DNA from: Microbotryum violaceum
Taxonomy: Eukaryota
Reading direction: 5' to 3'
Assembly: GCA_001244265.2 (NCBI GenBank)
Contig: LN717261.1
Span: forward strand, 62,001 to 126,000
DNA: 64,000 nucleotides
Below are positions 20,405 to 64,000 of this stretch, in pieces (positions within the stretch are counted from its first letter, which is position 1; the number at the start of each line of letters is the position of its first letter). The translations under genes were made by a program, and so were the position numbers. The notes below the pieces were generated by a model that worked only from the letters and a program-made list of their open reading frames with translations, ran no database searches and was not told the DNA's origin.

Positions 20405-21229
20405 TCATCCCTCCAACAATTCCGAACACAACCAATCCTCGTAACTACCATCGGGTAAGAACCTCCTCACGACCAAAGGGATCTTGTTCGCTGCCAATTC
20501 CTTCATCGCGATCATCAAAGGGTCTGATTCACCTTGCAAAGGAACGAGTACGGGAGCGTTCATACTAATTCGGAATGAATCAATCTCACTCAGGTCAACT
20601 CAACCCTCTCTCTTTCTCTCTGCCCGAATCTAACTCTCCAAAACACCAACTCACCTAATTTGTAAAGCTCTCGTACCCAATACCCTTGCCTTTTCATACT
20701 TTGTCATATAAGGTGTGGTAACCCTGTCTTGGTTAGGTTTCAAAGGTCGTTTAAGACCGGGTGGTAATTGACCTGATTCGACGACCCCGTTTTCCGATTC
20801 AAGTGCTGCGAAATCGGTCGATTCGTCTAGGTTGTAATCGGCGTCCTTATGGGAAACATGAAAGAAAGATTACAGTTTAATTCGATTGATCGAGTGCTCA
20901 AGATTAGACGTGGGAGGGGGAAAGAGTGTCGATCGTAAGATCGATCTCTGGCTTGCAGTCGACTTGTGCCCGCCCGCCCTGGCACGACCGGACGGGGTGG
21001 TGCTCATCTTCAACTCACGTAATTCTGATCAAAACTAAACCCCCAAGAAAAAACGACACAATCAAAATCAGCTCTCGACGATCGTGCGTGACCGGACAAG
21101 GGTTCTTGTTCTTGGCTCATGAACGGAGGGTGGGATTACCCCTGCCCGAGCTGTGATCGACGAGTGACTGTAGGTATGAAAAAGAACTCACTCTTCATCT
21201 TCACCTCTGTACGATCCGGCGTCTGACAT
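20405..21229 (-). CDS. RPB6: RNA polymerase I/II/III shared subunit Rpb6 (RPABC2)
   Basis: Spliced translation [26 protein letters not shown]...[80 protein letters not shown] carries the diagnostic Rpb6 core. Includes a 16-nt micro-exon at 21019-21034. Absent from the ORF track. Confidence 0.95.
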
Positions 21230-21551
21230 GGTAAGGAAGAGGTGTAGTGTGGGGTGAGAGGTGAGAGGGTGAGAGGGTGAGAGGGTGAGAGAGGTCGAGG
21301 TGAGTTGGGGTTGCAAAGTCAGAAGAGTGCGGCTGCTTAGCCATTCGCGCGAGTAACTCTATAAAGTACAATTTTAGGATAACCGATTCCGCTCCGAGCT
21401 GGGAAAACCACGCGCCAGCCCACCCAGCCCACCCAGCCAGCCCAGCCCAGCCCAGCCCAGCCCAGCCCAGCCCAGCCCGCCCACCCAGCCCGCCCTAGGG
21501 TCAGACTCTCTCTCTCTCTCCTCTTTCTCTCTCCCTCCAACCGAGCGAGAT
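21230..21551. promoter_or_regulatory. Bidirectional RPB6/TAF1 intergenic region (322 bp)
   Basis: Lies between divergent ATGs. Contains (GAGAGGGT)n at ~21255-21290, a TATA-like ctataaag at ~21359, a (CCCAG)n array at ~21415-21490 and (CT)n. Confidence 0.7.
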
Positions 21552-24500
21552 ATGGAGAACGATGATCCCTCCTCCGTGCTCTCCCAACTCGGATCTTTCG
21601 CCTTGACCGAAGTATTCAAGGATCTAGGTCTCGACCTCGAACGAGATTCACTTTCGTCCGTTCAATCCCAGCTGGGTTTAGGCGCAACTCATCATAGCGG
21701 TTCAGCAACGGGTGGAGATGGATTAAGTAAGGATTTGGTTTATGATGGCAAGTTTGTCGATGAGGAGGAGGAAGAGGAAGAGGAAGAGGAAGAGGAAGAG
21801 GAAAGCGAAGATGACTTGGAACGACAAGTCGATCAGGAGATGTACGACGAGTCACACACCACCACCTCCTTGCCACTTTCTACTCCCGCATTGACCGGTC
21901 GAAAACCGACGAGTTTGGTCAGAGGGGAGGAGGATGACTTTGATGAGGATGATGAGCAGGACCCACAACAGACGTCGACCGTCACCGACAAGGACGTCGA
22001 GATGGCTCACTCCAACTCGCACTCGGAAGAGGAACACCTCCTCCAATCCGTCAAGGCCGAACCCATCGATCACGAGCACACCACCTCGAGCATCCCCCAC
22101 GAGCCACTCGCGACCGTTCCCGAGGTCGAACCCACCCCGCTCCTCGATCGACTCCGACTCGGGCCTACCCCCACACCCGTACCCGTACCCGTACCCGCAC
22201 CCGTACCTGCACCCGTACCTGCACCCGCACCCGCACCGGCGATCTTTCCATCCACCACCAACGACCACCCTACCCCATCCATCTCCACCGCCGCACCCTC
22301 AGCGACATCCTTCGCCTCCATGCTGGATCCCCTCCCCGTTTCGATGATGCCGATCGTGCCACCTATGCCCCAGTATTCGGTCAAAGAACTCTTCCCCTCC
22401 TTCGAATACAGCCAAACCCTAGACTTTACCGACCTATTTGCTGTTCGACCCAGAAAGAGGGCCAAAAAACTCGTTTCAATACTTCAATGTGACTACCCGA
22501 AACCTTACATCAAGAACCCACACTCGATTCAAAAACTAATCTCATCTTTGTTTCCCAGTCACCCTCCCGCCAGAACAAGAGATTAGAACATCCAAATCGA
22601 CGCGCGATACCCTCTTAGAACCTATGAAACCACTCCCACCTACGAGTCATCTCAAGCAATTATTGAGCGAATCTCAGTACAAGGAGACGGAGGAATGGGA
22701 GGAGGAAGGAAATAGTGAAGACGAATTGTACAAAGCGATCGAGGTGAGTTTTTGTCTTTTATGTTCCCAGCAAAATGACTTACGCGCGAATTGACGAAAT
22801 AGGCTTTCTTGGCAGCGCTCGAATCGAATGACCACGTCCAAGTGGCAGATTCCTGATTCAATTCATGGGTTCGATAACGCCGAGTTGGACGATTGGGAGG
22901 ACAAGATCATTTGGGGACCTGATACCATCGCGTGAGTCATGCGCATCGATAAGAAACCCACCTCGATTAGATCACCCTTTTTCCTGAGCTTGGCCAAACA
23001 TCATCAAACCCCTTCCCACAGACCCCGAACTTTGATTCATGATCCTCTTGCTCCTCGTAATATCGACTTTGAACGAGGCGATTGGACCAAATCGATCATT
23101 TGGGATGCCTCCAAACCGTACAAGGATTTCACTCGACTCAACCTCAACCTCAACGATCGACAAATGATTCTCGAAGTTCAAGCACCGACTTTAAATTCCA
23201 TAACCGCATCCGATAAACCGACAGAAGTTACACCTATCGGTCTCGTTATCGAAAAAGAACCTGGTTTGGATCCTTTCAACATTTCAAACGATCGCGAATA
23301 CGTCGTTACGAAGGACGCGAAGCAAAAGATTCGACAAACTTTTGGTTCACTCGAGGTACAACATGCTCACCCGGCTGCCAAGTTACAATTACCTTTCTAC
23401 AAGACGCGCATGACCAAGAATGATATGCGTTCCTTTCATCGACCGACCTTACAATTCCCTCAAAACGTTCCTTTATCATTCGACAAATCACGTTCATCCA
23501 AGAAGAAAAAGGACGCTTTAGGTAAAAAAGTCAAAGGAAACGAATTGAGGCACATGATCGACATTACGCTCAAAGATACTTCACCTTTCGTCTTGTGGGA
23601 ATATTCGGAAGAAACGCCACCTATCATTTCCAACGTTGGGATGGGTAGCATTATCGTCAATTATTATCGCAAAAGGGATCCAACCGATAATTTCGTTCCC
23701 AATCTCGATTTAGGCGAACCTCTAATTCTCGAAGGAACTGACGAATCACCTTTTAAAGCATTCGGTTACGTTCATCCAGGTCAAACCGTTCCAGCTTTAT
23801 ACAACAACCTAATCCGTGCACCACTATTCCGTCATCGTCCACCTACGACCGATTTCCTAATCTGTCGAGTCACGATCGAAGGTGAAACCAAGTACTACAT
23901 TCGAGAAATCAAGAACATGTTCGTACTGGGTCAAACTTATCCCTTGAATGAAGTTCCTGGACCTCATTCAAGAAAAGTGACTACCTTGGTCAAGAATCGA
24001 TTACAAAATATTACGTTCAAATTGATCGAAAAGAATCCACATCATCGAATCAAGGTACATCGATTGACGAGGTATTTTCCTGATCAGAATGATTTACAAA
24101 TGAGGCAAAGGTTGAAGGTTAGTAATAAACTGGATAGGGTTTTTTTTTTTTTTTTTTTTTTTTTTTCTGAGACGAAGAAAAAAAAAAAAGTGAGAACTTT
24201 CGCTGACTCGTTTTTATTTATTTTAGGAATTCATGGAATTCAATCGAAAAGGACCCAACCAAGGTTTCTGGATGATCAAAAAAACCGTCGTCGTTCCTGA
24301 CGATACCGAAATGATGAAACTAGCCACTCCCGAAATGGTTTGTCTAGCCGAATCGATGCAAGTCGGTTTACGTCACCTCCAAGACGCAGGTTACGGTGCC
24401 GCAGCCGAAGAAGGTGGTGCTGGTGATGATGATTCCAAACTTGATATCGAACAACAATTGGCGCCTTGGATAACGACTAAAAATTTCATCAATGCGACGG

Positions 24501-24631
24501 CGAATAAAGCCATGTTGAAATTACATGGTGAAGGCGATCCTACTGGAAGAGGGGAGGCTTTCTCTTTTTTGAGAACTTCGATGAAGGATATTTTTTTGAG
24601 GGCAGGTGAATTGATGCAGGAACGTTTGGGT

Positions 24632-24670
<39 letters not shown>

Positions 24671-25887
24671 CCTATTCACTAGAAGAAAAGCAAAGAACTT
24701 TTGCGTCATCGTGTTTGTCGGGGAGGAAGGTTAGACTGATACCACACACGTGTGTTGAACACCCACAGCGCAAATGGAATCCCGACCTAAATCTGCCCAT
24801 CGTTACAACGTTCAAGAGCAACAAGATGTTTACAAGGAAGAGATCGCTCGTATTTGGAAAGCTCAATGGGATTCACTTCGAAACCCTATCGAACCCGACT
24901 TAACGGCGGAGGATGAAGAAAGAGCTAGAGGTGCGGCGGTTACGGCTGCTGCTAATGAGAAGATGGTCAAGATTAGACAGAGGCAGGAAAGACATGGTAC
25001 GAATTCGTTGATCGATCATGGAACGCCGGTACCGGGAACTCCTGGACCTGGTGGTGGAAGTCGTGCGAGTTCACCGGCCGAATCTGTTGGTTCCGGAGCG
25101 GGGGTGGAGAAACAAGCCAAGACGTTGAGGATCAAGAGATTGATCGAAGGAAAGTGGGAGACGGAAATCGTGAGGGACCCGACGATCATTAGTGCGTATG
25201 TGAGGCAGAGGAAGACGATTGAGGAGGAAAAGACCGAGGCGGATGATTTGTTACCGTCGGATGATGAGGGTAAGAATGAGAGGGCGAGGAAGAGGTGCGT
25301 TCGGAATTCATCTTCTGGCTCGGTGAGCTCGGAACCGAACTAATCTTAAAATCTCATGAACTCTGTTTAACAGGCTCAAGGAGCAACTCGAAAAGCTCAA
25401 ACGCAATCAAGAACGCCGTCTTGCACGCAAATCCGCCAAACTCGGCGTCCCCATCAGCCAAGTCAACGTCGGCGGAAAGGGATATGTCAAGACCGAAACC
25501 ACTCGAATCTGCGGCAACTGCGGCCAAAGGGGACATATGAAAACGTCAAAAAAGTTGTGTCCGAGATGGCACGAATTCAATGCGCCCAAGGGTCCGGAAC
25601 CTTCTTCAACTTTGGGTTCGGGCTTTGGTGGTGGTTTGGCATTACCTTCCCTCGGTGGAGGGGGTGGTCCAAGTGGTCCCAACAAAGCAGGTGGGAAAGC
25701 GGGTTCACCACCACCAATTCAAGTGGGTACACCTTCAGTATCGACACCAACAGCCTCGGGATCCGCTAAAGCGACGCTCAAATTTAAGTTGTCGACGAAT
25801 AACTCGGGGTCGGCTTCTTCGCCTCCGGCTGCTGCGCCGGCGACGCCGAGTGGAGATACGGCGATGGGGGAAGTGGAGCATTTTTGA
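21552..25887 (+). CDS. TAF1: TFIID subunit Taf1 (fungal type, no bromodomains), multi-exon
   Basis: DUF3591-type core DPFNISND..., HAHPAAKLQLPFYKT, RSFHRP, EYSEETPPIISNVGMGS, LYNNLIRAPLFRH, LAPWITTKNFINAT, GDPTGRGEAFSF. C-terminal zinc knuckle CGNCGQRGHMKTSKKLCP. Confidence 0.96.
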
Positions 25888-27268: not shown

Positions 27269-29875
27269 ATGTCCAAAGCGGAAGATCCACCCGTCACTAT
27301 GTCTCAGTCTGAGTCAGGACCTCCGTCGCATCTCGCCGGCGTCGGCACTGGCAGCTGGAACCAAGGTGAGCCTCGGACGAGTCAGGACTCCGCACGACCA
27401 TCGCCTCCTCCCCGCACACTAGCCTCAGCCTTTGCGCCTTTCAACCGCTCATTCGTGCCGCCATCTCTATAGCTACTTCCACCGTGATACCAGTCGATGA
27501 TGAGCCCAAGCCCGCCTCTGTACCGAGCCCGTCTTTTACTCCAGCTCCAGTTGAAGCGCCATCATCGCAAGGTGACGTCAAGCCGCTGCCCGTCGGCAAC
27601 AATGTGCATCCTACCACCCAACAAGCACACGCCGCGTGCGCTTCCGAGTCGCTCGTACAAGCGCAAGCCGACAAGGTCGAACAAGCCGATCGAGTCGCTC
27701 ACGGCAAACCCGAAAAAGGTCGTTTCGTGCCCGGCATCTCGGACGATCGTCTATGGGCACTGCGTAGGCGCTTCGACAGTCAGATCGTACATGTGCTCTC
27801 ACCTCCGACCAAACTTCCGCCCGGCGAACCCGATTTGAGGTCGACGACATTGCCCAGTGTTCCCTTCAACTCGGACCTGCTGAGGTCGAATGCTGAACGT
27901 GTATATGCTACCGCCGGTAAGTATAGGAGTCGAGCCGTCGACACTTATCGCGTCGGACGAATCACTGACTCGATAAGGAAACTTCTGTTCAAACAGGCGT
28001 CTGGTCCATTTACTTTGCGCGCGAAAGTGAGAAAGATTTATTCTCTGCTTGTTCCGCTTCTCACTGCTGTCGGCTGATCTTACTCTCTCTCCGTTCTTAG
28101 TGGGTCGTCTCATGAGCTGGGACGAAGAAAATCGCATTCGCACGGGCATTTGGTGCACCAGCTACTTCCTTGTATGCTGGTGCGACTTCGTCATCCCCAC
28201 CATCATGCTACTTCTCATCCTCCTCGTCTCCTTCACTCCCTCCCGAGCGGTCCTCTTCCCCCCTGTGCATCCCCCTCCGGGCGTGCCTCATTCTGCCACC
28301 GACCCGACCCAACGCAAGGGTGACGAATCTAAAATTGCTGGCGTTGGTCACCCTGTTGAACATCGATCCAAGAGCGAGCAGATTGAACAACAAGCTTGGG
28401 AAATGACGAACACGCTTCAGCGCTTTGGTGCTCGAGTCGTGGTCGGTGGACAGGGCAAGGGTAAGCGTGGCAATGCCACTGTCGGCCGCAAGCAAGGCGC
28501 CGATGAGTACTCGGACTCCAGCGACGACGAGGAGGACAGTGAGGACGAGGAGGCAGAAGTACCAGCAGCTGGTGGTAAAGAAGGGGAAGTCGTCGTTGTG
28601 GGTCCTGATGGGCAGCCCGAGAAGAAGATGACGGCGAAGGAAAAGCGCAAAAAGGCAGCGCGCGAGGCGAAAAAGAAGCGGGACGAAAAAGTTGGGCGCA
28701 TGGCGAAAGGTCTGCAAGACGGATTGGGTGACTTTGCCGACGCGCTCGAACGATTCGCGAATGCGGTTTCCCCTCCTCGACCGTACCCTCATACGGACGC
28801 ACGCTACAAGCTCGCCGGTGCGATACTGGTCCCCATCCTACTCGTCACCGCCATCGTCCCGGCGCATGTTTGGTCTCGCGTCTCGTCCGTCTCGTTTGGT
28901 ATTGGATTCTTTGGTCAACCATTGCTCAAGCGAGCAGGTCGCAAATTTGTCGAACTCGTTCCCGACTGGCAAGAGAAGCTCGATCTTCGCAAGTAAGTTT
29001 TACTATGCTGCTCCAATGCAGCGTTGTCAAGATTTTGCCGAAGTTGACGATTTTGTATCAACTTGATATGTTGCAGCTCGATTCTCTCAAAGGTCCCGAC
29101 AAACGCTCAGCTCACTCTGCACATGCTTCGCGTCAAAGAGGCGGCGTACAACCCCTTGCCGCCACCGCCGACCGCTCCTACTCCTGCACATGTTAAAGCG
29201 GAGATTGAAAAGACTGCAGACGTCGACGACTCAGACGAATTACCTGACAAGTCCGCCAAGCACGTCGATTCCAAGACGGGCGAAACCGATACTGGTGCCG
29301 ACGAGGACGAAGGAGGTGACGGTGGCGCTGGTGTGCGTGGCAAGGTCGTCAAAAAGAGCAAGAAGGGCCTACTGGGTGGATTGAAGCTCATGGCGAAGAA
29401 GGGAGTCGACAAGGCCTTCTTCCAATCGCGCGTCAAGGACCGCGATATGATTGAGAGGTTTCCCGCCAAGTTCGAGGGTTCGTCCGGTGAGCTCGTCATC
29501 ACGCACGAGTTCGGTCAACCCGCCCTGGTATCGTTCGTCCCCGCTTCGTCGTTGAACAAGAAGACGATGTTCGAAAGGCCGATCGATGATCTTGTTGAAG
29601 TGAAGAAGAGTGGCGTTTGGATCGGCCGCGCCGTATTGGGCTGGGCCGCAGGTGCGAGTCTCGAAGGTGCCGGTTTGGAACTTAGGTTCAAGGACGCGCA
29701 ACTTCGTGAAGCCGATTCCATCGGCAAGCAACAGCACGAGGTGCTAGGCGAGGTGAATCCTCATGATGAACAGCATGAAGGCGATACCGTGTGCTTCTCC
29801 CACGTGGTCAGGAGGGACCAGTTCTTTGCGAGGTTGATTTCGATCCCTCAAAACACCAAGTGGGAGACGCTCTAG
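27269..29875 (+). CDS. DUF3292-like fungal membrane protein, multi-exon
   Basis: LRRRFD.QI.HV, LRSNAERVYAT and RLMSWDE..RT..WC..YF followed by hydrophobic segments and LFPP; VPTNAQLTLHMLR. ORFs 27484-28077, 28049-28996 and 29063-29875 are joined by GT-AG introns. Confidence 0.75.
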
Positions 29876-30112: not shown

Positions 30113-32955
30113 TCACGAGATCGTCTCAGCCTTCAAGACCAACGCATCAACCTCGCTCTCCCCGACCCCAACTCGGCGCTGAACGAACTCCCTCGTCTTG
30201 AGCGCCAACGCTTCCCATTCCTCCTTCAACTCGCCCATATGCTTCTGCCAATACGCCAATACGAGCAAAGCGATCAAAACATCTTCATCCTCTACTCCAA
30301 CTCGAGACTTCCACTCCTCGTCCAACTTGGTAAATCCAAGGACTTGAAGCACCAGCTTCTCAAAAGACCCGTCGAAGGCTTGAGCTCGAGCGATCTTGTC
30401 GAGTCGGTCCGAATCGGTCTCGGCAGTAGAAGGGGTCCCTAATCGATCCATCATTGAATCACCCTGAGCACCGCACACCATCCCACCGCCTCGTAGACTG
30501 AAGGACCTCGGAGCCGCTCCCGGTCCCGGTCCACCGCCGATTACTTGGGCCCTACTCCCGAACTTGTAATCCCTCTTCGATTGGGGCATCATCATCGTCA
30601 TCGGTGCCGCATAAGCCATCATCGGTCCAGGGGCGACGGGAGCCGAGAAAGTTGTCATCGGAGTTGCACCACCCGGAGGCGAGGGCGCACAAGCAGCAAG
30701 CATCCTCATTCCCCTTCCTGAAGTGGCTCCACCTCCGATCCCATCATAAGTCGGCGACATATTGTTGCGAGATCGAGCCGCTTGTCGTTTCGCGTGTTCT
30801 TCCACCGATCCGGACTCGTCGACGGCGATGAAAGAAGTGTGCGAAGAAGTGATCGCGTACGTCGTTCCGAGACGTACGATCTCCGCTTGGAGCTGGCGTT
30901 CGTTCTTGTGGGGTTGATCCGCAGTCGTCGAGGTGTCTTCGAAGGCTTGGATCAGCTTCTTGGCTGCGATGACGTGGATCGAGGTAGAAGGGGTGGGAGA
31001 AACTATGACGGGGATCTTGAGTTCGAAATCCTCGCCGTCGAAAGACTGGGCACAAAGGATGACCTCTTGGGGAATTGTGACGCTCGTATTGAGGATGGCA
31101 TAAACGTGCATCCTCGACCCAGAATAGAGCGACTTGATCACGCCTGGAACCTGTTGGATTCGAGGAGCAGGTGCCAAACTGACGGGCTCGACCTTGAGAA
31201 CCGGAGAGGATGCGCTTTCGAGAGCATCGATGGATGGGTCGAAGAGTGAGACTGGCGTCTGTTTTTCCTGCCCTTGCTGCGCATCGGGTTCCGGTTGATC
31301 GACCATCTCGAAATCCGAATTCTTGTCATCCTCTTCCACGGCCTCCATCTTCGTGACTACGTCATCTCGACCACCATAGTCGATCTCTATCTTGCTGAAC
31401 GGCTTGGATCTGGCGGCCTTGAGTAGTCTCGCCGTCTTGCCCGTGAATGACTCGCCATCGACGACGAACTGGCACGTCCCATCACCGATCCTGGCTATAC
31501 CTTCGCACATCGCCGTCGACGCCGAGTTACCGATGCCCAGAACGAAGACCCTCAAAGGCGTTCTCCTACCCGCCGAATCAACGGCTTGACGAACGGTGTC
31601 AAAGACGTTCAAAAGGTCCCACGCGTCTCCATCAGTGAGGAGGAAGACGGAAGTCGGCGTGGTCTTGCGACGTAAGGCAAAAGTTGCTTCGAGCGCGGCT
31701 TTCATCTGTGTGCCACCAAAATCGGCTTCCATCGAGTCGACGAGCTTGGTCGCACAATCCAGTGTACTCTGTGTGGTGTTGAGGCCTGTCAGTACCCAAC
31801 TTTGGTGGACTCAAGTACGGACCATTACTCGACTCACCTGATCATAGACCCGACTCCCACTCTTCCACAACGCCTCATGACCACTCCCAAACGAGATGAT
31901 GTTAAAGCCAGTCCTCCTGCGACTCGGCAAGCTTCTCAACAAGACGACCAACGCCTTTCTTGCCATCGAAATGCGATCGCCATCCATCGACCCACTACGA
32001 TCGACGAGGAAAAGGTATTCCTGCTCTTCAAATTCAGGGGCGTTGAACTTGGGGACGAGAGTGATCGAGAGTGCCGAAGAAGGGTTCGAAGGATGTCGTT
32101 CGGCGATACATCGAGGGTTATCGGAATACTTGGCGACGATGGAGAGCACGAAGTCCTTGTCGAGTGCTCGAGGGGAAGAGAAGGACACGGTCGCGAAATT
32201 TGGAACTTCCTGGGCGGGGACCTGGTCGGCGATCGAGGCGTCGGGTCCCAATTCAGTCGAAACGGTATGCGATGGGCACATGATTTTGCGGATGGCTGAC
32301 AGGGCCTCTATCGAAGTGGTCAAGTCGAAAAAAGTAGTTTCCAAAGTCGAAGTTCGAGAGGCCGAAGGGGAAGAGTCCAAGTCCTTGTCGCCGTAGCGTT
32401 GACCGATGTGCATAGGGAGGTGGAAGCGGATTGAATCGTTCTGTTCGTCCTCGGTGAGCTCGGTCACATATTCGAACTGGATCGTGACTCGTTCTTGAGG
32501 CAAGAGGTTGCCGACGAGCATTTGGAAAGCTGCATTACCAAAGTCAGAAGAACGAGCTCAAGTCAGCAAAGACTTTTTACAACCGAGATTAGACTCCAAC
32601 TGGACTTACTATCAGGGGTCTCTTGAAACAATAAGCTGGCCAACTTGCCCTTCTCTTTAGCTTGCTCGTACTCCTTCTTGGCCTCCTGTTTCTCCTTGAC
32701 GACCCCCTTCACCCTCGTCCCGTTCTGCTTGACCATCTCGAAAGCACACACCGCTCCTCGATCAGGCACAGGAAAGACATAGGTGCAGTCCTGAGTGTGA
32801 TTCGTCTCGTTCTTGTATTCTTGGACCAGTTTGACCGAGGCGGAGAGGTGCTTGATCGACGCGGTCGCATGCACGGATAGAAGCGACACGGAGCGGTACT
32901 CGACTAGCCACGGTTGTGCCACGGTGCGGTCGACGATGTAGAGGAGGCCGTGCAT
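30113..32955 (-). CDS. VIT + von Willebrand A domain protein (VWA5A-like)
   Basis: VIT region YVFPVPDRGAVCAFEM...VKEKQEAKKEYEQA; vWA MIDAS motif FLVDRSGSM, FNIISFGS, FGGT, LLTDGD, VLGIG. Three exons. Confidence 0.92.
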
Positions 32956-37814: not shown

Positions 37815-37984
37815 CCACAATGTAGAGCGAGTGATGAGAAAGCTATCAAGATTAAACAGCCGCGCGGGAAGAAAGCCCCGCGCGCTCCCTAACTTAAACA
37901 GATCAAACTCCAATACCAAAGTGACTAATGACCAAACCCACGCGCATCCGCGCAGATACCACAGGCACAGGCACATATCAAATG
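37815..37984. repeat. 170-bp near-identical repeat, second copy at 47961-48130
   Basis: ccacaatgta...gcgcgggaagaaagccccgcgcg...cacatatcaaatg is present at both loci. Confidence 0.9.
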
Positions 37985-51442: not shown

Positions 51443-52152
51443 CGGTGCAACGCTGCTCGATCCGGTCCAGTCGGTCGAGTCGAGCTGAGGTGAGTCAGGT
51501 CCAGCGCGGGCAGAGGGCAGGCACGTGCTCAGCGGCAGTCAGCGGCAGTCAGCGGCAGTCAGCGGCTGGCGCGGCTGGCGGCTCGTCTCGAGAAAGTGTT
51601 TCCTTGACTTTTGGCCCTCAGTCGGTAGAGCACCTGACTCTTAAAGCTCAAAAAGCCCCCCCTTTGAAATCCATCAATTGAAATAAGAACTCCGACCTCC
51701 TGACCGACCTGTTCGTCTCGCCGGAGCTCAGGCTCACACAGGTGTGCATTCAAGCCATTGCTTCGCGGCCTTTAAAAGCAAACATTTGATTTTTACTACC
51801 GGAGCAAAATGTTACGGTATTGTCCAAGCGCAGCGCTGGGAACTTTCATCACTCAAAAGTCCGCTCCCGGGTATCGTCCTTCTTCCGGAATCGGCCCGTT
51901 GTGGATCCCGTCATCCTCCTCGTCTTTTCGACAAAGAGAAGGCCATAAAATTCATGTAGTTGCAGACGCAAAAGCTATGCATGCATCGAGGAGGGCGCCC
52001 GAGCTTACCTAGTCCGTGCTATATAGGGTCGGCGTCCAGACTCCCGAGATGCCCCATCACGATTCGAAGCGAGCGAAGCGTTTCGGACTTTTTTTAGATT
52101 CTCGAAATAATGTTGACAACATGACAAAGGGTGTCCAACGCTCGCACTCTGG

Positions 52153-54237
52153 CTACCTAACCACAACAGCGACCCAGTTCTGTAGCCGCTCATCCTCCCG
52201 CGGCTGTTCGGTGTCCCTGGCCAATCGCAACAAGCTCAGACTCCTCCTCTTGAGCTTCTTCGTAAAGCCCTCACCCCCGTTCTCTTCCCAACTTTGCGAG
52301 CCTCCATGACGACCCAAAAAGCTCCATCTCGACGAGGCCTTACTTCTCCCACTATATCCAGTCGCATAGCTCATCCTGCTCGCCGATCGGTTCCCTGTCC
52401 AGCCCTGTCCCCACATTGTGCTCACGTCATCTCGGTCCTCCTCTTCGTCCTCCTCATCGTCCTCCTCAACCCTACCGAGCGCAGATCGTGTCGTATTTCT
52501 CGACGAACTCCTTTCGATCGGCCCATCAACAGCTCCCCATTTCTCCCTCCCCTTCTTCCCCTTCACACCACTCTTGGCCTTAGCTTCCAGTCCAAAGCTC
52601 GGCGTGATCAAATCCCTCCATCCGACCCTCAAACCCATCGCCTGTTCCCTCGGTGTATGCGGCGCGGGAAGGTTCTTCAAGTCCCATGTAAAGAGGCTAC
52701 TCTCGCTGTTCTTGGTCCTGAGATTCTTATCGGGTGTAGCGCGATGGTTCCAGTGACTCGGCGTGAGAGGGCGAAGGTGTTGCAGGAGTGGGAGATCGGA
52801 TTCGACTCGAGGAATGGATGGGGCCGTACGAGGATGGTGAGAAATGGAAGACAAGTAGGATGAGAGGTATGTCGAGGTACAAGACGTCGGGAAAGGGAGT
52901 GCGGTGGGGTCGTCGGGCAAGTACGTCGACGTCAAGGGAGGCAGGGTCGGTCGCTCCACTTTGGATTCGGCATCGTCGTCAACGTCCTCTTGAGTTTCGT
53001 CATCGTCGTCGTTGTCGCATTCAAATTGAGCCCCCGCACTCCACGATCTCAGTTTCAACGGCGATCCAAAGAACGTGCCAAACACAAGAGCTTGGTCCTC
53101 TTCGTCCTCGTCGCGCGTGATTGTTGCGGACCCTCGCCGCTTGCACTGCGGTGGGGAAGGGGTTGGTGCCGTTTCGTAAAGGCGCGGGGGCACCACGCCT
53201 ACGCTCGTTTTCTTGGTCAGACTTGGCGGTGTATCTAACCGAGTCAGTTGGACAACATCAGCTCGAAGGACCTGACCTTGCTCGGTGTCGTCCTCGCGTG
53301 TGTGGACGTCGTCGGACCCTTCGTCATCGGTGATCGAGGCTTGGTCTGCGTCAGCACGTAAAGGGACCTCGAGTCGCGCCCCAGCATTCGTGTTCGACGA
53401 TTGCCACAGCATAGGACCCAGTAAGGTATCGAGAGAAAGTCTGGGCTTGGGTGTTCCTTCGTATTTGTGGCGTAATTCGTCCGCCCACTCTGGCTCGACC
53501 TCGACCTCGGTGTCCTCATCCTCGAACGTCTTACCCCCAAAACCACTCCAAACGCTACCTAACCAGCTCATCCTTTTCCTCCTTTTTGTCGTGTTCGAGC
53601 TTTTGGATGAGCCCAAACTGCCGATGGTCTTATGTGACGAATCCGAAACGGTTCTTCGCTGATCGAGGTTGGAAGCAGAGCTGGGCCATTTTGACTGTTG
53701 TCCGTGAATACGGTCCCGTTCCAAAGATGCGATCGAGCTCCAAATCGGATCGTTGGACTGTACTGTACCTATGCTGCTTCGTTTCGATGGGTTCTTGGAT
53801 GTTAGAATCGCTTTGGCGACAGAGGGCAGGTCCATTGATCTCGATGCCGGCAATCTTAGATCGGGTTGATCCTGCGAAATGTGAGCCAAATTAAAGCTAC
53901 GGGTAGTAAGAGCGAGGCTTTATCGAATGAATACACTCACGAGAATGGAGTCCGTGACGTTGTTGGACCCATCTCGACGAACATCTTCCCTGTGGGGTTG
54001 CTGTAAGAACGGCTTGGAAATGACCAACGACTTGATGGCTGTTGCACTTGGGTTTTGACCCTGCCACCTCGAGGTGTTGGTGATGTTGCCCAAAACGGTG
54101 CGGGACTTTTGGGGCGTCGAGCCTCGCAGGTGGGGTTGCTGGTGTCGGCTGGGCTGTTTAGGTGCACCGTGAGCGAAGACGGACGTCGAGGACGGTGGTC
54201 GAGCGTCGGGGCTGGTTGCAATGACGGCGCCAGTCAT
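52153..54237 (-). CDS. Hypothetical disordered Ser/acidic-rich protein with an N-terminal D-box-like motif
   Basis: Exon 54237-53941 (…RTVLGNITN…) joins in phase 0 via gtgagt...tcgcag to the 578-aa ORF at 52153-53889. Confidence 0.7.
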
Positions 54238-56778
54238 GTTGTGAGGAGTCTACTCGAGTTCAAGACGGGTCTACGTCAGTCGATAACATTGTACGCCACT
54301 ATGGTTGCTCAGGAGCAGCGTTACGTGGTAGATGGTGTCGATCACGTGAGATGTATGCACCAGCAGCGACCTCCGCCGCCTGCGAACTCCGCACGCACGA
54401 TCACTCAACACCCCGCATGGGTCTGCTCGAACGTGCTCTCGACAGGTGACAGACACTTACAGTGGGGTGATACAGTACAGAACCACACTTAAATACAGTG
54501 GTGGGCTCGTGAAAGACTGGGGGGTAAATGAGCGAGCCGTGCGGGATCAAACTCGGGTCAGGGGCGTTGTTGATAGGCAGCGACGGACGGACGCGAAGAG
54601 GAGCGCACGCTCGCTCACGACCGGAGGCGCGTCGGGCGAGGTCGGGCGCTGTCGGGCGTGGCTGAGCCTGGCTGAGCGCTGCTGAGTGAGGCTGAGGAGA
54701 GCTCCTTCGCCCCTGTTTACTCAAAATTGGATTCTCTCGTTTCCAGTGAGGTTTTCGGTCCCGCCCGCCTGCCCCATGCAATGATTTCTTTTCACTTGTT
54801 TTTTCTTTATGGTTCCTACACAGATCCTTGGATTGGTCCTCCCCTTTTGCTCGACGCCCGGCCCGCTCCACCAATGTGATAGTGTCACTTCGTGCTTCGA
54901 GATCGTACTCACGGTATTCTACTACTCACCCTACTGAGACCGACACATCAGTGTCCCCCACCGCCGAAGCGCTAGGATGAACTTTCGGTTGAAAGGTCCA
55001 GTCAAGCGTGCCGAAATGGCTCAGTTGGGAGAGTCCGCCTGCGAGTGATACAGACCAGGAGGGAAAGAAGAATGGATTGAACTTCCGATGGTTTGCAGTG
55101 GCAGCTGAGCTGATGATCGACGTCGATCCGCCCCCCTGCGGAATTTTCCGCTTGCATCGAATCGTACGTAATACATGATCTTTCCATGTCTTTTGGTAGC
55201 CAATAGCAGCGATATTCAATAGAGATCGGAGCTCGCCTGAATTTGTGCAGCCCCCCCCCCCCCCCCCGCCGATTGGCGTCTCTTCTCTGGGTAAGCTACG
55301 CAGTGGCGCTGCTTTCAAACCTCGGACTGCTGATTCGTGACATCTTTCTTCTCCGCTCGTGACGAGCACACGTCCTGCAAGGTGCTGCCAGCTGTTCGCT
55401 TTCAATGGTTCATGAATTTTCCGAGATTCATAATCCTTGAACGCGATTCTATTGCTCACTGGAATCCAGAAACCGATGAAAGTTTGACCGATCCAACGCC
55501 GACGGGGTAGGAAAACAAAATATCCAATGTGGCAGGAGGCCATCACGATCCAACAACAAAACGGAGAGAGTGCGGAAACCCAGAGCTTGACAAGGAAAAG
55601 ATTAACGGTCTAGGCTGGATATGATCTGATGAGACCGATGTGGCGAAACAATGGGACTACGGTGGGACAGATTCGCGAAGGTTCGTTGTTGTCCTAACAC
55701 GCCATGGGCGATCATCCCGAACAGCTCCATTCGATCTTTATCCAAGGCCTGAACAGCCCCATCTGATCTATATTCAAAAACCGGTCACGAGCAACTTTCG
55801 GATATCAGTGGTAACGAGGAACATGATACGCTAATGCAGCGCTGCTGACGAGTTTGTGCAGGTCAAGGAAAGAAGCTTTCGTCCCAGCCCGGGATGCAGG
55901 CCGTGACGCGAAACGCACTCAGGAGACTAGCAAGGGGAGAAACAATGCCCAAGAAGATTCGAAACACACAGAAAACGAGTGCCAGGTCAGCTTCGATGTT
56001 GTCTGGAAAATTCTTTACCTGAGAACAAACGAATCCTTGCAAGAGATCAAAGTCTTCCAGGCTGCCCCCCCCCCCCCCCCCTTTCCTGGACCACACTGCA
56101 CGGCCTCAGGTGAAAGAATTGGATTTAGATAACACAGTAGTCATATCACTACCTAACGCCTGAGATTTACTCTGTAACTCTACATTGGTGTCAAAATCCG
56201 GTTCAGCCAGCCCTTCTTCTTCCACTCTCACCGTTCGGTCCATCGGTCCGTCGGAAGTTCACTGGATTAGGCTCTGTCTTTGTTCACGCCTACGTATATG
56301 AGACACCGAAGTCCCAAAGTGTGCCGAGAGCGCCTAATAGGGGACACGTTTTCCGATTGGAGTTGTCTTGTCGATCGCCAAGAGTGCCTTGTCGTCGATG
56401 CCGCAAGCCCCGATCAAGGATTTTATCGATCAAGCATTTTGTTTGTACTTACCACCGTTGCTAGCCTTGACCGTTTGGAATGATGATTCTGGTGTCAGGA
56501 TGCCGGATTTGAGAGTGTGGATTCTCACACTTCTGAGGGTGCGAGCACCGCCGACGGTTGTCGGCCGAACTGAGACACGTGGCGTAGGTTAGGGGCGACG
56601 CAGAAAGTATCTGGCTTTTGTAGCTCTTGCCGGCGCAGGGATGCACGCGGCTTGATCCGGCTTGATACGCCAGACGGTCAGAGGAAGAGTCTCGTCAATA
56701 TGAAGCAGAACGAGCGCACGCAACCGTTCGCTCTCTGTTCTGCTTCATACTCGTCTCTCCCTCGATCCACTATCGACG

Positions 56779-57603
56779 ATGCTCTTCTTCATTTCTTCCA
56801 TCCGCTGTGCCCTTGCCGTGGGCTTGGGATTGCTATACTCATTAGCCAACGCCGCCACTTTTGACTATCTCTGTAGGCGCGAGGCGGACGTAAATGTGAG
56901 TCCATATGCTTTGAACAGAGTCCACGAACCATCTGCGATCACTGGTGCCTCTTCCGCCGGGTTACGGCTAACCAACCCTCTGCCTCACCTCAAAAATCGC
57001 AGACGAGACACCCCGGGGTCTTTGGCGACTGCAAGATTTTGTGGCGAGACGCGGTACACACTCGGGGATGGGCAGCCATGAGAGTAGGCTTTACAATTCT
57101 TACTGCTTGTGTTCAAATCATGAATGGTTCACGCAATACTTGTTCTGCTTGAATGATCGTACGTTTGCGCCTAACGGTCGGCGGCCTCGCCTCAGCCTGA
57201 GGCGTCAATAACCTGATCCTAGTCACACGTCCAAAACCAACGCCGTTTGCTGACTACGTGCCACCTTCTGTTCAGACGCTCAAAGGCTCGATTGGATCGC
57301 AGGGGATGAAGCCCAACGATGCCAAGACTGCAAGTCTACTCACGGCAGTGAGTCAACAGCGTGATTTGTTTATACATGACTTGCCCGATGGTGTGCGGAA
57401 ACGCCTTATAGCGTTATATGTAGCCCCTGGAGTAGCTAGAATCATCGAGTTCCAGTCACGACTTGCTTTGGGGCTGACGGTCGAGAACGACAAATTATAT
57501 CTAAGCATATTAGAGGAGCATACCTTACAGCTGGTCTTGTCCTGGGTATACCAGTACTGACCAAGTTGTTCCTGAACATTGATTACTAGCGGTTGGATGT
57601 TGA
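56779..57603 (+). pseudogene. Small secreted Cys-rich protein family 2, copy C (1-nt frameshift in exon 2, or assembly indel)
   Basis: Exons 56779-56895, 57003-57158, ~57276-57347, 57590-57603. Exon 2 is 3n long versus 3n+1 in paralogs, so DCKILW and YCLCSNHEWF..YLFCL lie in different frames. Ends TVGC*. Confidence 0.7.
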
Positions 57604-59181
57604 TCGGCGAGGAAATGAAGATCGCATCAGCAACTTCCTCGTCCCCCGACTGTCATCACTTTCATCCACCAAGCTTCTCATCATTGGCACCCTTCTTTCG
57701 TCCTCGATTCGAGCCTCCCTTTCATTTGTGCATTTCCTCTCAACCTCGCTATCATCCAGGTTACGGCCTCGTCAAGTTTCCTCGTCGTTTGGTCTTGGCC
57801 TCTTCATTTGTTACACGTTCACCTTGATCAGAGTACACACTTCGCAAGTGCATTTTACCTACCTGCCCATTCCCATTCCCAGCCCGTTCAATTTCATTTT
57901 TCCCACAATATTCTGTCTCCATATCCTGAGACGCGCGCTTGAGGTCATCTTCAGAGTTATGCTGCCCCTATCCTCCGTGAGGCCGTTCGAATTCTTCTCC
58001 GACGAGCCAAAAACAACCCTCACCGCGCGCCTTTGAGCTCATATGAGCCTGATTCAATAAATACGAGATATGAAGTCGAAAACTGTATGTACATGTCATT
58101 GAAAAAGTCGTCGCAGAAACCGGAATAAGCTGATTGACGGCGATCGTGTTCGATCCAGGGGGGTCGACGCAGCGGCGGGGAAACACGTGCCGACTCCTTA
58201 CCCCCACCCCCCCCCTCAGACGCGGCTCAAATATTGGGGAAACAATGCCCCCAAATGACGAGACACGAAGTTGCTCCCGTCGCGAGGGTCCTTTTCGAGA
58301 CCTTTCGAGAGAACCGCTACTAGGTTAGATTTATTTAGCCAGCGGACTCGGGACTCCGACGGGGCCTCCCGTTTGGCAGGTATCATTGTGAGTTTTGAAT
58401 TGTGTTCAAAGCGCTAGATGAGCGCAGTTATGGGATGAGAAAACAAAGCGGTCAGAATCAACATGCGGGTCACCTGGGTCAGTACGACGGGATTAAGTGG
58501 TGTTCGGAGGCGCAAGACATTTTGGCATGTGGAGGTGACACCGATGCGCGAACATGCTTGTTCTGTAAGATTATTTACTCTAGAGGCAGACCACCCTAGC
58601 CGGGCGGTGCGGATCAGACTATGGGTTCCGTACGATTCGGGTTACTGCGTTTCGAAGAATGACGGTCGTCAACTTGAAGAGGAGGGCCTAGTATTAATTT
58701 GGAAGTTGAGCGTGTCCGTCGGTTCATGAATCAGTTCGATGATTCGGCACTGCAGGTGGTCATACATAATTCATGGAATCCTTTGACGAAACCACACGAA
58801 TTCGCCAGAAAGTGTATTGCTCGCCAAACCCCTATCTCAAATAATCGTCACGCCGGTTTTGACGGTCGTTCGTGTGCCAATCCCCATGTTCAACGGCGTC
58901 TGGGTGGTGCTGCTGAATACGCCGAAAACGACCGACGAGGTGGGATTAAGGCCGCCCAGTGGGGACACCAGTACTGTTTGATAGGCACTCCCGGCCAGAT
59001 GAAACTTGCAAGTGCGCTGAGATGGTATGATGAGCCCACCACGATTGATTTTGGTTGAATAAGCTCGGGGTTACCGTATAAGATACCACCCCAACAATAC
59101 ACGACAACAACAAATAAGAATCGGCTCCTCTCCCTTCCGATCCCTTTCGCCTCCAACAACTTGAAAGCGCCGTCTGGTTTT

Positions 59182-60341
59182 CTAGAAATCTCCACCCCCA
59201 CCGAAATCGTCGCCACCTGCACCGAAATCATCTCCCCCTCCGCCATCCTGGTACCCATCCTGATAAGCCTCTTGTTCATCATGATTGTTGTCCATGTTGG
59301 AGAGGCCCGCGCCTAGCAGACCACCGGCGAGGAGGCCTCCGCCCATCATCATCATCTGGTTCGATCGAAAACGGACAATGTGGAGTCAGCTTTCCTCTTC
59401 TCTCTTCTAGAGCAGTGGAAGCAGTACACGGTCAAGACGTACAGGATTCATACCACCCCCGGTCCTCCCCCACCACCCATCATGCCACCGCCCATCCTGC
59501 CGCCTTGACCACCCATATACCCTCCCTGTTGCTGAGGATAATAAGCCTGTTGTTGTTGCGCATACGCTTGTTGAGGATAATACGCCTGCTGTTGTTGTTG
59601 GGTCTTGCCTCCTCCGGAAAACTTGGAGAACAAACCCCCCAATCCTCCCTTCTTTTGCTGTGGTGGTGGAGGCGAGTTAGCGAATCCGGCTCCGGCTCCG
59701 ATGGGGGTAGTAAGGGGGATGGGCGAAGCTTGACCATAGCCTTGTTGAGCATATTGAGTTTGTTGGCCGTATTGTTGTTGGGTATAAGGACCGTGGTCTC
59801 GATTGTTGACCGCGTTCGATGAAGGAGGAGGTGGTCCGGGAGGTGGGGCGTAAAAAGTTTGGGATCGTTGAGTTTCGAGGTAGGTAGGATCGTCCAAGGG
59901 GTGAGTCCAGATCGATCGTGGAGGGGTGGCCTGACAAGATAAGCGGTTGTGTATAGGGAAGAGGAGAGCGTTTCGAGCGAGAGCGGAGTGTGGCCGTGCC
60001 AAGCAATTCAAGACGGGTGCAGTGGGGGAGATGGGTGGCACGTCAGCTTATACGACTGCATGGGTAGCACTATTCCTCGCCTCGAAAAACTGACCTTTGT
60101 ATCAACCCAAAATGACCTCGAGTGCCTGTACAGAACCAAGAATCAACATCGGTTGGTCTGTTCGCCACCACGCTCAGACTGGCTGAGCCCGTCGCCACCA
60201 GCCAGCAGCAACTCACGCCTGATCGAACTGGGCGATCCAGCCTTCCGGCAAGGGACGATGATCCCCCTCCGCACCAGGTGGACCACCTCCTCCGTAGCCA
60301 CCTTGCTTTTGGTCAGTCTGATAGTCCGGTTGATAGGACAT
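59182..60341 (-). CDS. WW-domain Gly/Gln/Tyr-rich protein (Wwm1-like)
   Basis: Spliced translation MSYQPDYQ...RPLPEGWIAQFDQ|..FWVDTK|ATPPRSIWTHP...YAPPPGPPP...QQAYYPQQ...GGGLLAGGLLG...YQDGYQDG..DFGGGGDF*. Confidence 0.85.
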
Positions 60342-60369
60342 GTTCGCCAGTTCCCAAGAGACGGGGCGA

Positions 60370-60452
60370 GTGTGACGTGTGACGTGTGACGTGTGACGTG
60401 CGACGTGTGACGTGTGACGTGTGACGTGTGACGTCTGACGTGTGACGTGTGA
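60370..60452. repeat. (GTGTGAC)11 heptamer array
   Basis: Ten TGACGT units plus one CGACGT at 7-bp period. Confidence 0.95.
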
Positions 60453-60901
60453 AAAAAAGAGTGGGAGAGTAATAAGCGATGAAGGCTGTCTCGGGGAACT
60501 GATTACGGCTGATTATTACGGCCCGGGTTGGCACTTATTAGCGTCGCCACGGCTGCCGGAAGCGCCAAGACTTGGCCATCTCCGACGATCGAATTGATCG
60601 GGAGGTGATATCTACCGAGTGCAACTCCTCTTCTTCGTGGGCGATCATAATGGCAATTGGAAATACAACGGTATTTTGTGGCGTTTACACATAAGCACCT
60701 GCCTAACAACTTTGGTCCGGTGCGATCCTCGGCGCTCCCGGGCCCAGCAACGATCTCGGAGATGGGGTCTGACTCTGGGGCAGGTCGGACTTGGCCGAGT
60801 ACAGCCCCTCAAATGCTTTTATAGTCTCAGTAAATTACAGTCGTCTCCTCAACTTCAATCCTGTGCATTGAAACCCCCTTCACTACCCTAATCCCCTCAC
60901 G

Positions 60902-62117
60902 CTAATCATCCTCATCCTCATCCTCATCGTCGTCCCCACCCCCCTCCCCTGCTATCCCCCCTTGTGCCGTATTCTCAAACTCGCCCACCTCTTCCATCTC
61001 TTCATCCTCGCCATCGTCATCGTCTTCATCATCGTCATCGCCATCCTCCTCCTCTTCCTCTGGCTGCTCTCCATTCACTTTCGGCGCCTGACCCTGACCC
61101 TGACCCTGAATCGGTACCTCCTCCTCTTCTTCTTCTTCTTCCTCCTCCTCCTCCTCATCATCATCATCACTCCCAAACAATCCCTCCCCTTCCTCTTCTT
61201 CCTCCTCCTCCTCCGCACCTGCACCTACACCTGCACCTACACCTGCACCTGCACCTACACCTGCACCTGCACCCATCCTCATCCCTCCCACCGCATCATC
61301 CCCACCTCTCAAAGAAGTCTCCAACCCACCCTGCGGCGGTAAGACCGCACCCTTCTCCGACCTAGGTACGATCGAAAAATTAGGAGCTGTCAACCTCTGA
61401 CTTTGAGGTGGTAATCTAATTCCATAAACTTCTGGAACGGGTGGTAAAGGGTTCGAATTGATTTGAGTGGCTAAATCGAGTAGGAACTGTAACAAAAATA
61501 GCAGGGGAATTAATTTCCCTCCTTGAAAAACGAGGAGGGGGAAAAAGCTTACTTCTTTGGGTATACTATTACTTTCTTGTTTGGCTTGTACGGCCAATCT
61601 AACGTCCTCGATCGAAGGAATCAAATTGATGACCGCTCCTGAAGGGTTCGAAGGTTGACCTCTAGCATGTTCAGCGTAAACGAGAGCGTCGGAAACGATA
61701 TCTGCCGTATAACCTGAAAAACCCAAATAATTGGGGACGTGAGCTTGGTTCGCTTTCTATGCCAGTTTTTTTGGGGGTGAAAAACTTACGATGTGCGAAT
61801 TCGACCAGCATTCTGATGACGGCTGGTTCGGCATCACTTGCACCATTAGCGGCCAAGAGGAGAGCGATCAATCTCGCATCCCGTGGGAGGAGATCGTGTT
61901 GGTTCGTCAAGGTTGCAGTGGGTTTGGTCTTGTCGGCGGTGGTGGTGGAGGGTGCGTCTACGGAGGATTGGGTTGGGGTTGGTTGTTGCGGGGGGAGAGT
62001 GGTAGAGGAAGCGGGGTCGCCATCCTGTTCGAGGAGTGGATGAGTGGATGAGTGGATGAGTGTGGGTGGGTGTAGAGTGCAGTGCAGTGCAGTGCGGGTG
62101 TGGGAGGAAAGGTCCAC
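60902..62117 (-). CDS. TAF9: TFIID/SAGA subunit Taf9 with long acidic tail; start codon unresolved
   Basis: LPRDARLIALLL...VIRMLVEFAHR|YTADIVSDALVYAEHA...EDVRLAV...PKE|FLLDLATQINSNPLP...GIRLPP...LTAPNF: the Taf9 histone fold and conserved C-terminal region. Confidence 0.93.
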
Positions 62118-62481
62118 AAGTTTGAAACTGGTCGCGGTGAAGTCGGCTCAGGCTGCCGGTAATAGGCACTTTATAATAAATAGGTTGTAACGAGCTGAAC
62201 GAGCTGAAATCGCTGCCGAGGCGCGTGGCCGGCCAGCCAGGTGACGACGGTCGTCAGCTTTTAGTTTTGGTTTTAGTTTTAGTTTTAGTTTTAGTTTTGC
62301 TTAGGCTCCTCCTCGCCAGCGAACAAGCTACTCTCCCAGCCAGCTTTCTCTTTCTCGTTCTCTTTCTTTCCCAAACTCGCAAGCTACTCTCCCAGCCAGC
62401 TTTCTCGTTCTCTTTTTTTCCCAAACTCGAGTTGCTGTCCTGGCACCTGCCCCGCTGCACCCCGTTCCTCGATCGACCACG
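62118..62481. promoter_or_regulatory. Bidirectional TAF9/TAF4 intergenic region
   Basis: Divergent genes about 0.4 kb apart. AT-rich ctttataataaa at ~62170, (TTTTAG)n at 62260-62299, and a duplicated caagctactctcccagccagctttctc. Confidence 0.65.
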
Positions 62482-64000
62482 ATGCCATCCGCCTCGTCAC
62501 CCCCACCTCCCTCCCAATCGCCAGCCACAGTCTCCACACCAACGGCCTCTGCCTCCGTCAGTACTCCCAAACCGGGTGCGGGTCGTACAGGCGGTGGATT
62601 ACAGCTTCCCGGTGCGCTGGGGAACAAGGGCAAGACGAAAGCTAATCCGAGTGCGGAAACGAGTCGTACGTTTCGTTTCGGGTATCATCCGATCCGCGCC
62701 TGTGTTTATCTAACTACTAGTCGGAACCCTTACTCAACTTGGGTGCGTTTTGGGGGGGGGGGCTGCGAATAGGTAATAATACGACCAGAGATACTTTGAA
62801 AGAGTAGGTCCTGAACTCTGTCAACTTGTGATGACCGTTTTCGTTTTCCTAGTTCCCTACTAACCCTCTTCCGCTCTCTCTCTCTCTCTCTCTCTAACCC
62901 TCTCCCTCTCTCTCTCTCTTCCGCTCTCTCTCTCTTCTCTCTCTCTATTCAGACCCCACGAAACTACCACAAACACAAACACGACCACGGGCAAATTCGA
63001 ACATGAACCGAGCACGAACGTACAACACCTCATGGACGCTGTAGGAGCGAGTGGAGTTGATATCAACGTTCGTTTTAATCTAGCCTAACTAAGCCCCCCC
63101 AACCCCTAACCCCTAAAAAGAACCCCAATCTAAATCCTGACCCCAATCTAAATCCTGACCCCAATCTAAATCCTGAACCCTTCTTCCCAGGCCGAAGAAG
63201 ATTCACTACGACAACATCAACCTGTCCGATCTCACTTCAACACCACCTCTACTTCCCAACAACCCAACCCATCCACAACCCACACCCATACCCACACCCA
63301 CACCCACACCGCCACCACCGCCGCCTCCTCCGCACCTTCCACCTCAACCCTAACCGACCTCGACCTCCGAATCCATTCCCAATCCTTCATCGACCCTCAA
63401 GTTCTCGCCGACGTAGTTCGTAAAATCGCCGCCGAATATTCACTCAAAAGTTTAGAAGGTCAAACCATTCCTTTGATCGCTTTGGCTTGTCGAACTAGGT
63501 TAATGGATTTAATTTCCAATTCGATTCGAGTGAGGGATCATCGTCTAAATGCGAATCATTTAAGGAAACCTCCTTTTGATAATCAACTCAAGAGGAGAAG
63601 GAGGGATCAAGCTTTAGGGCAGGAGTATAGAGTACATGAGGAGGAGGATATGTTACAGGAAGGTAAAAAGGAACCTGTTTGGGACGCCGTCGTTTATGAT
63701 GAACCGGAAAAGGCTTTGTGGGTTTTGGAAAAGGTGGATAGGGAGGAAGAGAGGAAGAGGAGGAGGGAGAGGGTCTTGAGGGATGAGAAGGAACAAGAGG
63801 AGAAGGAATTGAGGGAAGCTGTCGAGGCGAGTGAGCGAGCACGTGAGGAGCAAGAACGCGATGATATCGCTATTTCCACCCCTGGTGTTGATGGTACCGA
63901 TCAAACGATGACGAATACGCTAGCTTCGACGGGCGGTATGGAAACGCCAAAATCGAACCCTCTTTTGAAGAAGAAGAAGAAGCGCGATTTGGGTCAAGCC
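62482..64000 (+). CDS. TAF4: TFIID subunit Taf4, 3' end runs off the window
   Basis: Spliced translation ...LMDAVGASGVDIN|AEEDSL...FIDPQVLADVVRKIAAEY...IALACRTRLMDLI...DHR...WDAVVYDEPEKALWVLEKVDREEE. Matches the Taf4 SGVD-xxEE motif and histone fold. Intron 2 has an 18-bp repeat x3 (63122-63178). Confidence 0.85.

Follow-up and report, generated by a model that had tools for sequence, protein, structure and literature searches.

Are genes of one transcription machine that lie side by side in a fungal genome held there by selection? This question is raised by a 64,000-nucleotide stretch of Microbotryum violaceum DNA (assembly GCA_001244265.2, contig LN717261.1, positions 62,001 to 126,000; hereafter the window), in which RPB6, the gene of an RNA polymerase II (Pol II) subunit, and three genes of TFIID subunits, TAF1, TAF9 and TAF4, form two head-to-head pairs. 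The original prediction, made from the sequence of the window, took this arrangement to suggest functional clustering or stoichiometric co-regulation on shared promoters and proposed that the two pairs may be an ancestral cluster pushed apart by accessory DNA. Comparison with relatives favors a different history, to which we assign a probability of roughly 0.7: an old and loose RPB6-TAF1-TAF9 neighborhood has been decaying neutrally, the tight pairs arose late, and promoter sharing is incidental. Named protein matches assign the window to Microbotryum lychnidis-dioicae, and in this reading the four are ordinary housekeeping genes that are expressed, with transcription seen for RPB6 and TAF1.

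The layout agrees closely with what had been predicted. RPB6 (minus strand) and TAF1 (plus strand) point away from each other, and exactly 322 bp separate the two ATGs (A at 21229 minus, A at 21552 plus). TAF9 (minus) and TAF4 (plus) are also divergent, and the separation of about 0.4 kb given earlier becomes 458 bp (62023 minus, 62482 plus) when start codons are located by script. Both pairs are therefore head-to-head in the sense of divergent genes whose starts lie less than 1 kb from each other, the distances being taken from ATG to ATG rather than between transcription start sites. All four genes lie within 44 kb, from 20405 to past 64000. Across this span 10 non-transposon genes were counted, four of them RPB6, TAF1, TAF9 and TAF4, which is close to the earlier figure of about eleven. 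The DNA of the window is fungal, its G+C content is about 53% and its introns are short; the four gene identities are correct.

A maintained cluster should be recognizable by adjacency across related genera and orders. Linkage was followed among named homologues, with locus-tag numbers, accession order and contig sizes used as proxies for genome coordinates. RPB6 and TAF1 could be compared in 17 species beyond the window, and they are adjacent in only one, M. intermedium (BQ2448_3311/3312; SCV70549/70550). Three species have the two genes 2-6 positions apart: Leucosporidium creatinivorum, at two accession steps (ORY53383/ORY53385) on one 58.6-kb contig, Rhodosporidiobolus lusitaniae, at a tag distance of 4, and R. 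poonsookiae, at 6. Four others carry both genes on the same contig, either farther apart (Rhodotorula glutinis, 39 tags) or on one large contig with a spacing that the tags do not give (R. nylandii, R. toruloides, and Sporobolomyces salmoneus). The remaining nine have them on separate contigs (R. ruineniae, R. odoratus, Phenoliferia psychrophenolica, Phenoliferia sp., Meredithblackwellia, S. roseus, S. blumeae, S. pararoseus, and R. diobovata). This graded spacing, from neighboring genes in Microbotryum through 2 steps in Leucosporidium and 4-6 tags in two Rhodosporidiobolus species to 39 in R. glutinis (these last three being Sporidiobolales) and then to unlinked genes, resembles decaying fungal microsynteny. 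Unlike that model, the three linked genes (four in Microbotryum) belong to one functional machine.

TAF1 and TAF9 lie 3-4 tags apart in 4 of 11 comparable species (Rhodosporidiobolus lusitaniae, azoricus, nylandii, and ruineniae) and occupy separate contigs in the other seven. In R. lusitaniae a single contig of 125.6 kb carries all three genes: RPB6 (tag _008568), TAF1 (_008572), and TAF9 (_008576). The graded RPB6-TAF1 spacing, together with the proximity of TAF1 to TAF9 in both Microbotryum and Rhodosporidiobolus, points to an old, loose linkage of the three genes, which might be of use as a marker of synteny in Microbotryomycetes. TAF9 and TAF4 are on separate contigs in all five comparable species outside Microbotryum (Phenoliferia psychrophenolica, Meredithblackwellia eburnea, Sporobolomyces pararoseus JCM3765, S. 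koalae, and Melampsora americana). In M. silenes-dioicae, RPB6 and TAF4 are 21 tags apart on one contig, as in the window. The ancestral cluster of the original prediction is supported in part, by the linkage of RPB6, TAF1, and TAF9.

Metagenome contigs were searched with an alignment of 22 TAF1 sequences, which yielded 25 TAF1 loci; a search with a single TAF1 exon found no relative. By nearest named TAF1, these loci are Leucosporidium-like (L001), Ustilaginomycotina-like (L002-L013), Phenoliferia-like (L014, L015, L022), Rhodosporidiobolus-like (L016, L017), Sporobolomyces-like (L018-L021), or Rhodotorula glutinis-like (L023, L024), and L025 is too short for placement. At none of the 25 was RPB6, TAF9, or TAF4 detected at E<=1e-4 (only noise appeared at E<=5); in 19 of them the contig extends at least 1.5 kb upstream of the point where the TAF1 alignment begins. 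Seventeen ORF (open reading frame) pieces from the other genes of the window likewise found no counterpart at any of the 25 loci. Ten ORFs beside TAF1 in the Rhodosporidiobolus-like locus L017 match no Pfam family.

Adjacency across genera and orders is therefore not what was found, neither in the named species nor in the metagenomes. The proposal that pairing on shared promoters is a maintained feature is not supported: RPB6 and TAF1 are neighbors only in Microbotryum, and outside that genus TAF9 and TAF4 lie on separate contigs in all five comparisons. This argues against a selectively kept cluster in which the genes are paired on shared bidirectional promoters for co-ordinated dosage, and so does the finding that each of the four genes has a contig to itself in both Phenoliferia psychrophenolica and Meredithblackwellia. 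A literature search, covering listings and abstracts, returned no report of TFIID/Pol II gene clustering. The three-gene linkage shared by Microbotryum and R. lusitaniae and the promoter and chance considerations below speak for selection of such a cluster; on balance we regard it as unlikely. If selection held the genes together, they would be a rare eukaryotic case of basal-transcription genes arranged for co-ordinated dosage, and their two spacers would be natural bidirectional promoters that lend themselves to dissection. The main value of the locus is rather as a warning that what looks like a striking functional cluster in a single genome may not survive comparison with relatives.

The shared intergenic regions bear on the same alternative. 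Between the ATGs of RPB6 and TAF1 (21230-21551, 322 bp) lie five copies of GGGTGAGA at 21252-21291, TATAAAGT near 21360, and a (CCAGC)n array at 21415-21495. Between those of TAF9 and TAF4 (62024-62481, 458 bp) lie 3.6 copies of GAGTGGAT, a central ACTTTATAATAAATA near 62170, and 6.7 copies of TTTTAG at 62259-62298. Each spacer has a single central TATA-like stretch (21360 and 62170). Common to both are the 9-mer CCACGCGCC and the 8-mer TATAAAGT, the latter oriented oppositely in the two, and these features speak for the selected cluster. However, the k-mer comparison, in which the RPB6/TAF1 spacer was taken as 21230-21541 (10 bases less than its full length), showed no excess of common 8-10-mers between the two spacers over shuffled sequences. 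The joint transcription of RPB6 and TAF1 in one RNA sample (sequencing run X19, described below) would also suit a selected pair. The mean intergenic length given for this genome is 502 bp (PMC4469406), so that neither 322 nor 458 bp is out of the ordinary, and the short intergenic region of each pair is of typical size for this compact genome. Head-to-head pairs are defined in the literature and described as prone to co-expression (PMC4089025, PMC2670823, PMC1487180). Like other bidirectional-promoter pairs, those in the window are divergent, have less than 1 kb between starts (here ATGs), and consist of two housekeeping members. They differ in conservation: the RPB6-TAF1 pairing goes no further than the genus, and the TAF9-TAF4 pairing has no counterpart in the species compared outside Microbotryum. 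The spacers probably act as ordinary bidirectional promoters.

The suggestion that pairing serves stoichiometry is also weak, for two reasons. The paired products are not direct partners, as within TFIID TAF9 partners TAF6 and TAF4 partners TAF12; and RPB6 is common to Pol I, II, and III. One parallel is found in the divergent core-histone pairs (H2A-H2B, H3-H4), in which genes of one assembly also stand back to back, and TAF9 and TAF4 are themselves histone-fold proteins. However, the histone pairs encode heterodimer partners and are very widely conserved, whereas the proteins paired here would form no dimer and their pairing is lineage-specific.

How far could chance alone produce the arrangement? 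Random gene order was simulated for the 7,364 genes counted in this genome (PMC4469406), so that the following figures refer to simulated order and not to true gene positions. For a category of 27 genes (TFIID and Pol II), the probability of finding at least four among 11 consecutive genes is 5.5e-5, and that of at least three is 1.4%. With the whole pre-initiation complex (45 genes) these values rise to 1.0e-3 and 6.5%, and with Mediator and SAGA added (90 genes) to 1.7e-2 and 41%. Two divergent in-category pairs inside 11 genes have a probability of 2.5e-5 to 9e-4. Three-gene linkage by chance is thus not rare. For a category fixed beforehand, the four-gene cluster would nominally exceed chance. 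The category was, however, picked after the data had been seen, in a scan that spans a very large number of windows and could have drawn on as many categories; it is conservation in relatives that must decide. The same breadth of screening, with 1.7e-2 per genome for the 90-gene category, lends some support to pure coincidence in one genome, the linkage in Rhodosporidiobolus having arisen independently. This is doubtful, as a given pair falls within 7 positions by chance in only about 14 of 7,364 cases, and two origins of TAF1-TAF9 proximity with RPB6 nearby are far less likely than inheritance; we consider coincidence quite improbable.

The history that we prefer, an old neighborhood in neutral decay, would run as follows. 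A loose linkage of RPB6, TAF1, and TAF9 was probably present ancestrally in the class Microbotryomycetes, and local rearrangements would have shuffled or broken it, lineage by lineage. The tight head-to-head pairs would then have arisen late, on the branch to Microbotryum (RPB6-TAF1 at the level of the genus, TAF9-TAF4 as seen in Microbotryum only), and transposons would afterwards have enlarged the gap between them. The shared spacers would be ordinary bidirectional promoters, possibly with some incidental co-expression and with no maintained functional cluster. The neutral origin, the promoter sharing and this order of events are what we infer. Neutrality is favored over a selected cluster because the pairing is late, the spacers are ordinary, their common k-mers fall within the range of shuffles, and the products are not partners.

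Several points weigh against this account. Genes on separate small contigs are not proved unlinked, tags and contig sizes being proxies for a map. The TAF9-TAF4 comparison does not take in the Rhodosporidiobolus species with known TAF9 tags. Under random order a four-gene cluster is nominally improbable, at 5.5e-5 to 1.7e-2 depending on the category. Furthermore, the RPB6-TAF1-TAF9 linkage persists in two orders (Microbotryales and Sporidiobolales), and the immediate neighbors of TAF1 in Sporidiobolales-like metagenome loci differ from those in the window; this could hint at preferential retention. A fuller version of this idea has the three genes selectively retained in two orders amid turnover, with TAF4 recruited and two promoters coupling dosage in Microbotryum; we hold it to be unlikely.

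The gene models on which these comparisons depend are as follows. RPB6 (RPABC2; 20405-21229, minus strand) had been described as hidden by short exons, and this is borne out by a model of four exons: 21229-21192, a 16-nt micro-exon at 21034-21019, 20845-20655, and 20564-20405 including the stop codon. The 134-aa product is identical, letter for letter, to P0121, the 134-aa RPABC2 of M. lychnidis-dioicae p1A1, which a single exon used as query also matched at 100% identity. The family PF01192 was found on two ORF pieces of the minus strand (20408-20599 and 20654-20869). Taken singly, the exons score under the Pfam cut-off (23.4 and 18.5 vs 26 bits), and the spliced product P0121 carries the domain. 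The domain and the full-length similarity to a named RPABC2 place the gene in the Rpb6/RPABC2 family. RNA contigs of run X19 cover 20309-20536 and 20655-20839 with zero mismatches. Models with an acceptor near 20827 or with a 6-nt micro-exon were rejected, as the X19 RNA spans 20655-20839 and the 16-nt micro-exon gives P0121.

Two sequencing runs differ from the window within the RPB6 introns. One extra C is present at 21039-21044, in intron 1, in run X2, whose organism label is that of the likely source, and in run X14, which comes from a relative; the window is one base shorter there. The relative of run X14 also lacks 102 bp of intron 2 (20883-20984) and has a 9-base insertion by the donor of the micro-exon (21011). 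Judged from this comparison of sequences, the RPB6 introns appear to evolve fast while the exons are kept.

TAF1, the gene of the largest TFIID subunit (21552-25887, plus strand), was delimited by Pfam, tblastn, and RNA joints. Its core is DUF3591 (PF12157, E 7.9e-115), which continues into another three ORF pieces. The zinc knuckle of CCHC type that TAF1 proteins have at the C-terminus is matched weakly (zf-CCHC_6, 18.0 bits, under the cut-off of 22). One exon of 454 aa is 94% identical to TAF1 of M. intermedium, and the whole protein of that species (P0001) aligns by tblastn to 21552-25884 in five pieces of 58-96% identity. Two introns, 24116-24224 and 25293-25371, are confirmed by GT..AG joints in X19 contigs (24115>24225 and 25292>25372). 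These contigs match the window without mismatch, and on exons only, over several pieces of TAF1 as well as over RPB6. Both genes are thus transcribed and spliced in the X19 sample; among the sequencing runs compared, splice joints were seen in X19 only, and its contigs show neither transcript starts nor levels. Run X18, guessed to be RNA, was set aside, since its shallow coverage takes in intergenic DNA and it resembles genomic reads from a close relative. In run X14, also from a close relative, one contig of 5.9 kb spans RPB6 and TAF1, which is little informative at such relatedness.

Two pure T runs occur in TAF1, one of 27 bases (24140-24166) inside the first RNA-confirmed intron and one of 36 bases (24635-24670) between two coding pieces; the latter probably also lies in an intron. 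Contigs from several runs break at both, so that assemblies are fragile there.

TAF9 (60902-62023, minus strand) was outlined from Pfam, tblastn, and an analysis of reading frames. A histone-fold exon reaches to about 61788, exon 2 begins at 61711, an in-frame intron lies at about 61549-61484, and an acidic tail leads to the stop codon at 60902-60904. PF02291 covers both exons (62.5 and 31.9 bits, cut-off 29), and tblastn with TAF9 of Leucosporidium and R. lusitaniae supports the model; none of the 57 TAF9 homologue matches is a named Microbotryum protein. The start of the gene is anomalous. In this assembly no in-frame ATG precedes the histone fold (61788-62023, minus strand), and the sole upstream ATG, at 62023, belongs to another frame than the main ORF, one that is closed by a stop after 21 codons. 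Between this ATG and the main ORF lies a run of six G (plus strand, 61990-61995). The assembly was built from 454 reads (PMC4469406), and run X2 shows a C run one base longer at 21039; for these reasons a homopolymer miscall is a plausible cause of the frame break. The anomaly could thus reflect an assembly miscall, a real frameshift, or a non-AUG start.

TAF4 (62482-64000, plus strand) is truncated by the end of the window. The part inside carries PF05236 (42.8 bits, cut-off 33). The full product in the same organism, P0344, has 526 aa, and tblastn places its residues 1-62 at 62482-62667 and 69-380 at 62942-64000. A relative 97% identical to P0344 is named TFIID subunit 4, which together with the domain identifies the gene as TAF4.

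From the stop codon of TAF1 to that of TAF9 is 35.0 kb. The claim that accessory DNA pushed the pairs apart holds for about half of this gap, which is made up of repeats, a copia fragment, and DNA without a recognizable family, but six conserved unrelated genes also intervene, and no component of the Pol II machinery is among them. The first is a gene of the DUF3292 family in three ORF pieces (27270-29875, plus strand), with PF11696 on all three. A gene with VIT and von Willebrand A domains follows (30113-33387, minus strand; PF08487, PF13768, PF00092), and next to it lies a DnaJ-TPR gene (33388-35508, minus strand), with matches to TPR families and a DnaJ match slightly under the cut-off (25.2 vs 27.8 bits). 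The transposon and repeat block of about 13 kb (35867-48130), defined by self-BLAST and Pfam RVT_2, includes dispersed repeats at 35931-37984 and 46186-48130, a further copy of which is found at 56718-57977. Within the block, a fragment of a copia-type reverse transcriptase (42331-43912, plus strand; RVT_2, E 5.3e-36) is followed by an ORF without a family. Beyond the block are a Tcf25/Rqc1-type gene (48905-51538, minus strand; PF04910, E 1e-85), a serine-rich ORF of 588 aa (52153-53919, minus strand), and pieces of a Pro/Gln-rich ORF (59448-60512, minus strand). The last two match no Pfam family, and the Pro/Gln-rich pieces look WW-like by eye only.

The richness of the window in transposons and repeats, accompanied by a family of small secreted protein genes, would fit a further explanation, in which linkage was kept by a recombination-suppressed, transposon-rich region of a mating-type chromosome. 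Transposons are described as accumulating in mating-type regions of this genome, and also around secreted-protein clusters genome-wide (PMC4469406). However, the locus tag of the RPB6 orthologue in M. saponariae names 'Chr7' rather than a mating-type chromosome, and suppressed recombination creates no adjacency. This explanation is very improbable.

The small secreted protein family just mentioned comprises four paralogous small ORFs on the plus strand (2593, 13950, 16648, and 19431), which start with the signal-peptide-like MKYSL(V/F)F. The repeats around them are 76-90% identical to one another (13436-13914 vs 16160-16647, among others). The family fits the description, given for this genome, of small secreted proteins in clusters associated with transposons (PMC4469406). 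Between the first and second of these ORFs, an uninterrupted ORF of 951 aa (5250-8105, minus strand) gives a weak match to Transposase_21 (tnp2; E 0.0043, under the cut-off) and is probably a DNA-transposon gene.

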